A DNA stretch of 64,000 nt from a virus (taxonomy: Duplodnaviria; Heunggongvirae; Uroviricota; Caudoviricetes): IMG/VR virus record IMGVR_UViG_2721755660_000001. One strand, 5' to 3'. Position numbers: made by a program. Shown piece after piece: positions 27,001 through 30,000 of the stretch. Within the stretch, counting starts at the first letter, position 1. Each line of letters opens with the position of its first letter.

Positions 27001-30000
27001 TTCTTACATTAAAATCAAGTAAGTCCGACTTTAATGCAAAGCGCGGACTGTATGTTGCCAGTATGATTAATAAAGCTTTAAAGGGGCGTTTTAATTATGG
27101 TCAACAGTTATCGAGTTCCAAACTCAGAGATGGAGAATATTTCATCTCATTACCAGTGAAAAATAATGAAATTGACTGGTTTTTTATGGATAATTATATA
27201 GAAGAGCTGGAAGCGGCCCATATAGAAGAGCTGGAAGCATACCTGATAGCTGCTGGGCTGAGTGATTACCAACTAACGGAAAAAGATTATCTTATCCTGG
27301 AACATTTTAAAAATATTGAATTTTCAGGCTTTCCTGTTACTGAGTTATTCTCAGTGTGCAATACAGGAAACATATTGTCTAGAGACATCATAGAAAATAG
27401 TGGGGATGTTCCTTATCTTTGTGCTAGCCGTGATAATAACTCTGTTAGTTCTTATATCGCCTATGATGACTCACTCTTGGAAAAAGGGAACTGTATTTTT
27501 ATTGGTGGTAAGACATTCGTTGTAACTTATCAGGAGCGAGACTTTTTTTCAAACGACAGTCATAATTTGCGACTCTATGTTAACAATGAGGATGGAAGGA
27601 CAAAGTTTGCTTATTTGGGCATTATTTCATGTATTTATAGGTCTATTTCACATAAATATTCATGGGGGGATAGTGTTAGTAATAGAAAAATTAAGAACGA
27701 TGTTATTTGGTTGCCAGTGAAAAATAAGTCACCTGACTTTTGTTATATAAATGACCTTATTTCAGTTGTTCATAAGCTTGTCATTAAAGATGTTGTCCAG
27801 TACGCAGAACGCAAAATGAACGCATACAGGCAAGCTATAACAAGTCGCGGTTATGATGATTCTGGTGTCAGTTAAAAAACATTTTACAATCGTAAAAATC
27901 CTCATATCATGATAAGAATGGTTACATTGCCACGCTGCTTAACCCGCCGATGCGCGGGTTTTTTGTATCCGGAATTCTGTGGGTTACCCTGCCCCCCTTA
28001 GAAAGGTGCGACAGCAATTAATAACAAAATCTTAAAAATCGCATATGGCACTATTAGTTTTCTAAATATTGTATATTTTAAGTATTGCAGGATAACCCTG
28101 TAACGAAGTTTGCGTAACAGCATTTTGCTCTACGAGTTTGCCAGCCTCCCCCAGTGGCTGGCTTTTTTATGTCCGTAGCGTCAAAGCAGCAATGGCGCTG
28201 GGGCGTCGTGCAATTGGCGTTGAGCTGGAGAGCGGGCGTTTTGAGCAGACGGTCAGGGAAGTTCAGAATGTAGTCAGTCAGAACGGATGATATTGCAGAA
28301 TTAGTTACGTACCGTTATTATCCTGCGCCCGGCCCTTTAGCTCAGTGGTGAGAGCGAGCGACTCATAATCGCCAGGTCGCTGGTTCAAATCCAGCAAGGG
28401 CCACCATCACATACCGCCATTAGCTCATCGGGATAGAGCGTCAGCCTTCGAAGCTGGTTGCGCGGGGTTCGAGTCCTCGATGGCGGTCCATTATCTGCAC
28501 ACTGCGTTGTTAGCTCAGCCGGACAGAGCAATTGCCTTCTAAGCAATCGGTCACTGGTTCGAATCCAGTACAACGCGCCATATTTATTTACCTGGCTCGC
28601 TTTTGCGGGCCTTTTTTGTATCCGCGCCACGCCCGGCGCATATCAAAAACCACAGAGCTTTTCAGGGGGGAGCTTACTGGATGGTCAGTGTGACTTTCTC
28701 TGTGGGCTGGTCACCCCCGGGCGCAGGCTCACCCACTAAAAGGAAAAGTCACGATGTTTGGTATTTTCAAAAAGAAAACCCGCAGAGCAGCAACTGAAAT
28801 TAAAAAGTTTGAGAAACGCGATCTGGCACAGGCGGTTATTAATGCTGCCTACCTGGTGGCCTATGCAGATGGTGAATGTGAGACTTCAGAGAAAGCGAAG
28901 ATCGAACAGGTATTACGTAACCAGCCAGCATTGTCCGCATTTACGTCAGAAATTAATGCCATCAGTGCCACGATCACAGGTCAGCTTGACACCAATTTTA
29001 AAATTGGTCGTCGTGCAGCGTTGCGTGAAATTGAAGATGTGAAACACGATACGCGTGAAGCGGAAGATGTGCTGGATGTGGCGGTGGCCATTGCTGAAGC
29101 AGATGGTGAAATTGAGCCGGAAGAGCGTAAGGTTCTGGAAGAGATTGCTGGTGTTCTTGGCCTGCGACTGGAGAACCACCTGTGACGGTAAAACTGCGTC
29201 TGGCCGCTGTGGCACTCCTGCTGTTTCTGGTGGTGATGGTGGATTTCACCAGCAGGATCATGTCGGTGCTGGCGGATGGAGTGCTGGTGGTCGGTATTGT
29301 GGTGGTGCTTTTTCCTTTGGTGAAAAAGGACATGCCAGGTAGTTAACCGGGTATCAGTTACGCCCAGAAAATTTTAATTGTCTCACAATTCAGTCAGTTG
29401 ACAGTTGCCTGTCAGACTGAGCATTTGTTAAAAAAATTTCGCATGGTGAATCCCCCTGTGCGGAGGGGCAATCAGCAAGTAGGTATATGGGATAATTGCG
29501 GATTCAGGTGCTGATACTGAATTCACCGGGAGGCACCCGGCACCATGCAGGTAAGCAGTGTAAATGTTTACATAAGCAAATCCCCTCACCGGAGGGGATT
29601 TTTTACGCCCAAAAATTCCGCGTATGGTGTTGAGATTGAAAGCCTGGTGCTGGAGATAAATGTACCGACATCATGATAAAAAAACGCCAGCACAGAAGAG
29701 AACGGGAAAACGAGTCTGACGCTGGCGTGGGGATATTCCCCGTGGAGAAATGATATGTAACACATATCGGGAGTATTTTTATATAAAAATGATAACCATT
29801 GTCAATCATAACGGTCGGGAATGATGACGTTTATGCATCAGAGCCATCAGTAATTAACGGGTGGCTTTTTTATTGTTGTCAGCTTCCGGATAACGGGAGA
29901 CGGGGTATGTACCAGATGGAAAAAATCACAACAGGTGTGTCATACACCACGTCAGCGGTGGGGACGGGATACTGGTTACTGCAGCTGCTGGACAAAGTCT

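Follow-up and report, generated by a model that had tools for sequence, protein, structure and literature searches.

The late-control region of Shiga toxin (Stx) phages has been described for the Stx1 and Stx2a prophages of strain Sakai, in which the promoter pR' is constitutively active and its transcript ends 258 nt downstream at the terminator tR', as located by Term-seq (Sy et al. 2020, PMC7547250). RNase E cuts this transcript at position +173, between GU and AUU, and thereby releases the Hfq-binding small RNA StxS (PMC7547250); that transcription begins at pR' and terminates at tR' and that the RNA binds Hfq and is processed by RNase E are all experimental results, obtained with Sakai prophages Sp5 and Sp15 (PMC7547250). 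By differential RNA sequencing (dRNA-seq), a transcription start that drives the tRNA genes was placed in Sakai between tR' and stx2 (PMC7547250). In terms of gene content, Stx2a phages of the q933 type lack the methylase that phages of the qO111 type carry between q and the tRNAs (PMC8456039; gene maps in PMC3491183, Fig. 5). Our search of the literature for ileZ, argN, and argO together with a methylase or methyltransferase returned nothing of relevance, useful statements being found only in PMC7547250, PMC8456039, and PMC3491183. Here, we examine the corresponding interval in a 64,000-nucleotide stretch of a Caudoviricetes virus (IMG/VR record IMGVR_UViG_2721755660_000001), hereafter the window, where a 153-bp open reading frame (ORF) of 50 amino acids (28138-28290, + strand, as for all parts written with two dots between their coordinates except the junction) precedes an ileZ-argN-argO trio. 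Our analysis makes it very likely that positions 28180-28290 of this ORF are an inert methyltransferase fragment at an old joint that was spread by recombination, and that a cassette located further upstream arrived later and separately and took no part in the truncation.

The ORF starts with TTG, reads MPASPSGWLFYVRSVKAAMALGRRAIGVELESGRFEQTVREVQNVVSQNG, and contains AAMALGRRAIGVELESGRF, in which a sequence-only reading of the window had recognized the C-terminal signature of beta-class N6/N4 methyltransferases. This recognition was borne out. In BLASTP, residues 14 to 50 of the ORF align with residues 316 to 352 of the intact enzyme of phage Stx2a_WGPS2 (29/37 identical; E = 4e-18, a value that refers to a single pairwise comparison), and 29 to 31 of the 37 residues are identical when all intact relatives are considered. 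At the DNA level, the match to Stx2a_WGPS2 begins exactly at 28180 and continues through the tRNAs at 93% identity, and the window is 98.4% identical to Escherichia coli OkiPb01715, which carries an intact gene, from 28180 to at least 31278. The methyltransferase 3' remnant, which we call the stub (28180..28290), consists of 36 codons plus the TGA stop and equals residues 317 to 352 of the intact 352-aa PF01555 enzyme. Because this similarity to the C-terminal segment after motif I is significant and syntenic, the stub is confirmed as what is left of the 3' end of an ancestral phage gene for a beta-class (PF01555) N6/N4 DNA methyltransferase.

The relatives with which this comparison was made are prophages and phages that have an intact methylase between Q and the tRNAs, the very context in which the sequence-only reading had proposed to look for them. 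Phage Stx2a_WGPS2 carries an intact 1,059-bp gene annotated as “DNA methyltransferase” (352 aa) that ends 40 bp before the same ileZ-argN-argO trio, and an intact gene with the same position and the same 40-bp spacing to ileZ is found in the Stx2e prophage of ETEC4068 and in the TerB-carrying prophage of OkiPb01715. The Stx2a_WGPS2 protein matches PF01555 (N6_N4_Mtase) with 150 bits against a cutoff of 26.7 (E = 9e-44). Intact relatives have motif IV (TDPPYF) near the N terminus, with DPPY at about residues 34 to 37, and motif I (DFFMGSGST) at residues 307 to 315, which is the motif order of the beta class. Like these enzymes (YP_009909071.1 from Stx2a_WGPS2, WP_096098492.1, and WP_065225714.1), which are encoded between the late promoter region and ileZ-argN-argO, the stub has the same last 36 to 37 residues at 78 to 84% protein identity and about 90 to 95% DNA identity, an identical stop codon position, and an identical downstream leader. 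Unlike them, the window lacks residues 1 to 315, including the DPPY motif IV, the target-recognition region, and the FxGxG motif I. The absence of a gene body upstream, also noted in the sequence-only reading, was confirmed when the intact proteins were compared by tblastn with the entire 64-kb window: residues 316 to 352 alone were matched (28177-28287, E = 3e-14), so that no other piece of the methyltransferase gene is present in the window. The shared segment is preceded in OkiPb01715 by 1.4 kb made up of a 67-aa ORF and the gene's first 948 bp; apart from the pR' region, none of it is matched in the window.

The stub is an ordinary, already known, and widespread pseudogene. In the Prokaryotic Genome Annotation Pipeline (PGAP), it is labeled [quoted passage not shown] (pseudogene), and at an O111:H8 chromosomal locus that is 100% identical to the window (L006), the PGAP pseudogene at 7174-7287 corresponds to 28177-28290. 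Several phage records name the 153-bp ORF “DNA methylase,” among them those of the 933W-type (q933) Stx phages PA2 (AKI85942.1), P27 (vBEcoSP27_46), and 06-3462 (WBL49776.1). The window shares with these phages the 153-bp ORF, the 111-bp methyltransferase part, the junction, and the 40 bp to ileZ, and its stub is identical in amino acid sequence to the 933W copy; it differs from them in having TerB/DUF3927 instead of stx downstream and a cassette between Q and pR' upstream. When a 271-bp probe spanning the junction (28060-28330) was compared with 5,426 complete E. coli genomes, at least 80% of it was covered in 540, and the intact methyltransferase gene was present in 1,916 of the same 5,426. 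Partial matches to the probe fell into two kinds, those restricted to probe positions 121 to 271, which are intact genes, and those restricted to positions 1 to 118, which represent StxS without the stub. A different stub turned up in FDAARGOS_1286, where positions 763 to 1095 of the 1,099-nt query made from the intact gene were matched.

The sequence-only reading had described the DNA in front of the stub as merely AT rich with terminators. The terminators were correctly noted, one of them being tR', but the region is not featureless: we find it to be the StxS gene, that is, the pR'-StxS-tR' late leader, as judged by its close homology to 933W. Positions 27868-28628 are collinear with the Q-to-tRNA interval of 933W, PA2, and P27 at 92 to 94% identity, and this interval is annotated in 933W with pR', qut, two hairpin terminators, and the tRNA promoter pT. 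The late promoter pR' (27883..27910; TTTACA, a 16-nt spacer, and TATCAT) was found by a promoter scan and is homologous to the annotated pR' of 933W. From the promoter position, the StxS_L homologue is predicted to start at 27917, and its alignment with the 933W StxS region extends to 28168 (27917..28168), which gives a leader of about 252 nt compared with 258 nt in Sakai and 933W. The RNase E site GUAUU is present at 28082-28086, and the putative processed StxS_S part that follows (28084-28168), i.e., the 3' 85 nt, is identical to 933W. It ends in the intrinsic terminator tR' (28140..28168; GCCAGCC, a 9-nt loop, GGCTGGC, and T6), equivalent to the 933W terminator at 20929-20957, and folding of 28084-28172 returns the tR' hairpin (z = -3.0). 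Compared with 933W StxS, the window's leader is about 6 nt shorter, it has a divergent patch at 27975-28010, and Q lies 4.3 kb away because of the cassette. No Rfam family was matched over 27900-28290.

Given the hairpin and T-tract at 28140-28168, codons 1 to 13 of the 50-aa ORF amount to a translation of the tR' hairpin, and only 28180-28290 is therefore methyltransferase derived. The 5' part of the ORF (28138..28179), which begins at the TTG and reads MPASPSGWLFYVRS, has no Shine-Dalgarno sequence and is also present in Stx1a phages that lack the remnant. One such phage defines the left side of the joint: homology with the Stx1a prophage of FRIK2533, where StxS/tR' is joined directly to the DNA upstream of stx1, runs through TTTTTTATGTCCGTA (28177) and then gives way to divergence. 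On the right side, intact methyltransferase genes match from GTCAAAGC (28180) on. Since homology on the left stops at 28177 and that on the right begins at 28180, the recombination junction between the StxS/tR' module and the methyltransferase-tRNA module lies at 28177..28180, one codon after motif I. We also considered microhomology between the T6 run in the DFFMGSG-coding sequence and the terminator T-tract as the basis of the junction, a candidate that we rejected: Stx1a phages share the postterminator sequence ATGTCCGTA, which puts the joint downstream of the T-tract.

The junction string, TTTTTTATGTCCGTAGC followed by GTCAAAGC, is identical in 933W, PA2, and P27 and in three further genomes (L012, L013, and L014) that have different Q genes or different upstream contexts, and every remnant copy aligns to residues 316 to 352. 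Between the pR'/first-hairpin region and codon 316, about 1.4 kb in intact-gene relatives corresponds to about 212 bp in the window (27968-28179), and the conserved pR'/first-hairpin region itself (27883-27967) is about 80% identical to OkiPb01715. A distant blastn search against phages for the origin of the 211-bp StxS body matched only Stx1- and Stx2-type phages, at 90% identity or more. From the identical junctions we infer a single origin: in an ancestor of the 933W-type late-control module, about 1.4 kb comprising a small ORF and the methyltransferase gene's initial 948 bp would have been swapped for about 212 bp, with the incoming segment now represented by the StxS body and the tR' terminator, and this single joint would later have spread by recombination to many prophages, including the one in the window. 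The window is itself a further mosaic, 933W-like in the stub (1 nt different) and OkiPb01715-like from the argO terminator onward. The stub thus marks a module edge older than the cassette, namely, the left end of the tRNA-cargo module, at its boundary with StxS late control.

As a separate observation, TTTTTTGTATCCG occurs after three different hairpins: the first hairpin after pR' (27959-27971), the argO terminator (28612-28624), and tR' of JNEC-KY174 (L007, about 7828-7841). Each copy lies at or near a module joint, and the sequence is possibly a recurrent recombination site.

If the stub is a relic, is it an inert one? It cannot methylate, since both catalytic signatures are missing: nothing in the window matches residues 1 to 315 and hence motif IV (D/S-P-P-Y/F), and homology starts at the codon after DFFMGSGST, which leaves out the S-adenosylmethionine-binding motif I (FxGxG); the 50-aa ORF also falls below the Pfam gathering threshold. 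It could nevertheless have been kept for another function, either as a microprotein of 32 to 50 aa or as a cis element, such as a sequence upstream of pT, a processing site, or a spacer insulating tR' from pT. Its frame is open in all copies read, it is present in hundreds of genomes, pT starts 3 nt after its stop codon, and the Sakai transcription start for the tRNAs maps to the corresponding interval. Despite these points, we regard a retained function as quite improbable. Neither the TTG at 28138 nor the in-frame ATG at 28192 is preceded by a Shine-Dalgarno sequence, and the ORF start and first codons are buried in a strong, stable terminator hairpin. Stx1a phages and JNEC-KY174 manage with tR' abutting other DNA directly, and because phages with an intact gene share the same pT region, pT is independent of the truncation.

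The substitution pattern points in the same direction. Changes private to the stub comprise seven nonsynonymous substitutions, namely, A>S in PA2; T>S, D>N, and L>V in the 933W class; L>P and R>C in P27; and R>C in 2011C_4247, as opposed to a single synonymous one (CTG>CTA), and several of them hit ALGRR positions that are invariant in intact alleles. The intact genes, in contrast, show about 45 nonsynonymous versus 86 synonymous codon differences (Fisher's exact test against the stub, P = 0.001 to 0.006). Our interpretation has to be weighed against three points. Restricting the comparison to the same 37 codons of the intact genes gives P values of 0.07 to 0.24, which are not significant, with low power. 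Every copy examined has kept an open frame, the 111 bp containing neither stop codon nor frameshift in any of three sequence classes; given so few substitutions, however, this is expected even under neutrality. Finally, the single origin of the junction is drawn from about 10 loci read directly and from BLAST coverage statistics, not from a full phylogeny. On balance, the stub appears to be a decaying, inert relic that survives as a transcribed spacer between tR' and pT.

Another explanation, put forward in the sequence-only reading, is that insertion of the low-GC hok/restriction-modification/S cassette deleted most of the methyltransferase gene, so that the remnant would mark the right edge of this cargo. 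The cassette is a real insertion, it does lie upstream of the remnant, and its GC content falls to 0.34 to 0.38 over hsdS. Comparison with 933W and PA2 delimits it to 23574..27867, and Pfam and Rfam searches identify its content as sok RNA, Hok, a 7-nt repeat, an HsdM-like N6_Mtase ORF, and an HsdS-like ORF. It amounts to 4,294 bp that replace 29 bp at the 3' terminus of Q, PA2 being 93% identical to the window over 21001-23573 on its left, and it gives Q a different 16-residue C-terminal tail, leaves the Pfam Q domain (residues 1 to 118) intact, and puts 4.3 kb between Q and its target promoter pR'. However, the right edge of the cassette lies at 27867, some 310 bp short of the remnant junction on its upstream side, and the DNA in between (27868-28179), including pR', qut, and StxS/tR', is intact and collinear with the cassette-free 933W and PA2 at 92 to 94% identity. 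Moreover, 933W, VT2-Sakai, PA2, P27, and many others have an identical stub and junction but no cassette, and the cassette, which has at least 80% coverage in 21 complete E. coli genomes, occurs without the stub: JNEC-KY174 has the cassette and StxS/tR' with neither stub nor tRNAs, its homology to the window ending at 28168 and restarting at 29382, and phage PhiR12_3 likewise carries the cassette without stub or tRNAs. Because each element occurs alone and the cassette edge lies about 310 bp away, the cassette neither created nor borders the stub, and a role for it in the truncation is hardly credible. The overall interpretation of the sequence-only reading is accordingly only partly supported, its identification of the remnant standing and its account of the cause being refuted. 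Weakest of all, the notion that the methyltransferase resemblance is a chance motif in a spurious ORF, to which the lack of any Pfam match of the 50-aa ORF at an E value of 0.01 or less might lend some appeal, has a vanishingly small probability, since the ORF is simply too short for such a match and its 3' part shows 93 to 98% DNA identity, in synteny, to the 3' ends of intact genes, with E values of 4e-18 in pairwise BLASTP and 3e-14 in tblastn against the window.

Returning to the remnant and its surroundings, we located the tRNA trio, which starts 40 bp past the stub ORF, at 28331..28580 (ileZ, 28331-28406; argN, 28414-28490; argO, 28504-28580). The first tRNA has a CAU anticodon and is called Met(CAT) by ARAGORN but ileZ, tRNA-Ile, by PGAP and in the 933W record. 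In the intact-methyltransferase prophages, the middle tRNA, at the argN position, has a 4-nt insertion and many changes and is labeled “tRNA-OTHER” by PGAP (L009, 3235-3315; L011, 4133-4213), and the argN of the window is standard and 933W-like. The putative tRNA promoter pT (28293..28321; TTGCAG, a 17-nt spacer, and TATTAT), which starts 3 nt past the stub stop codon, was assigned by homology to the 933W annotation (21082-21110) and was not called by a consensus promoter scan. By analogy with 933W and Sakai, pR' would, during lysogeny, produce StxS transcripts ending at tR', about 10 nt before the stub, and pT would drive the tRNAs; after induction, Q-modified polymerase would pass tR' and continue over the stub and the tRNAs and on into TerB/DUF3927 and the lysis genes.

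Directly after the argO terminator, in the position that stx holds in Stx phages, the window carries ORFs for a TerB-family protein (143 aa) and DUF3927 (28754-29346). This arrangement is common, being at least 80% covered in 789 genomes, and is absent from O111:H8 strain 7-58 72A, which is otherwise identical to the window over 23001-28615. Downstream of TerB/DUF3927, a strong match to the Rfam small RNA family STnc100 (138 bits) covers 29412-29600 and beyond, being truncated only where the scanned stretch ends. In the left part of the window, a tRNA-Arg(CCT) gene (3400-3474, - strand) may be the prophage attachment site, of the argW type.

The cassette itself showed several further features. 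Between the ATG at 24151 and the PGAP start of the hsdM-like gene (about 24760) lies a tandem repeat of the 7-nt unit GACCAGC (24160-24669), for which Tandem Repeats Finder (TRF) reported 73 copies and manual counting gave 72 regular units plus one 6-nt unit; here, the ATG at 24151 is in frame and opens an 856-aa ORF with a PATSDQR-repeat N terminus. The repeat also occurs in L006, L007, and L008, and cassettes that are otherwise nearly identical have 58, 82, and 83 GACCAGC units, none of which puts the ATG in frame. A prophage methyltransferase seems to carry a simple-sequence repeat that is hypervariable and possibly phase variable, an unusual finding for E. coli; a literature search for phase variation by 7-nt repeats in E. 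coli methyltransferases found nothing specific. The M protein has a weak N-terminal match to VRR_NUC (E = 0.001) and is labeled BcgI-alpha-like in one phage record, so it may be a type IIB-like restriction-modification fusion that has S as its partner, not one half of an orphan type I M/S pair. The delayed-early operon or promoters of its own presumably provide for expression of the cassette. The O111:H8 prophage with the same cassette has annotated Mu-like genes for DNA modification, com and mom, immediately upstream of ninG (L006, 302-1193).

What does the stub mean for the biology of these phages? In itself, it is of little importance: as a routinely annotated pseudogene in a large share of prophages of the STEC type (STEC being E. 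coli that makes Shiga toxin), it is already annotated and widespread and therefore of low interest. The analysis has corrective value in that the cassette edge is moved from the stub to 27867, inside the 3' end of Q, and in that the seemingly empty AT-rich DNA turns out to be the late-control element pR'-StxS-tR', by which toxin and rpoS expression is regulated in Stx phages. It is tempting to speculate that the roughly 450-bp block made up of the 111-bp stub, the 40-bp leader, and the three tRNAs is maintained as a homology “linker” for cargo swaps, although we rate this as unlikely. The block is 93 to 100% identical across prophages with unrelated Q/late-control modules, and the window, with its 933W-like stub and OkiPb01715-like downstream part, is an example of the mosaic expected from such a linker. 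If this were true, the linker would permit homologous recombination to exchange stx1, stx2, and TerB/DUF3927 between phages that have an intact methyltransferase and phages that lack it, and the stub would matter for the spread of toxin genes, not as a gene. In any case, the stub is a handy marker of the joint between q933/StxS-type late control and tRNA cargo and could serve to follow recombination among Stx and stx-negative lambdoid prophages.

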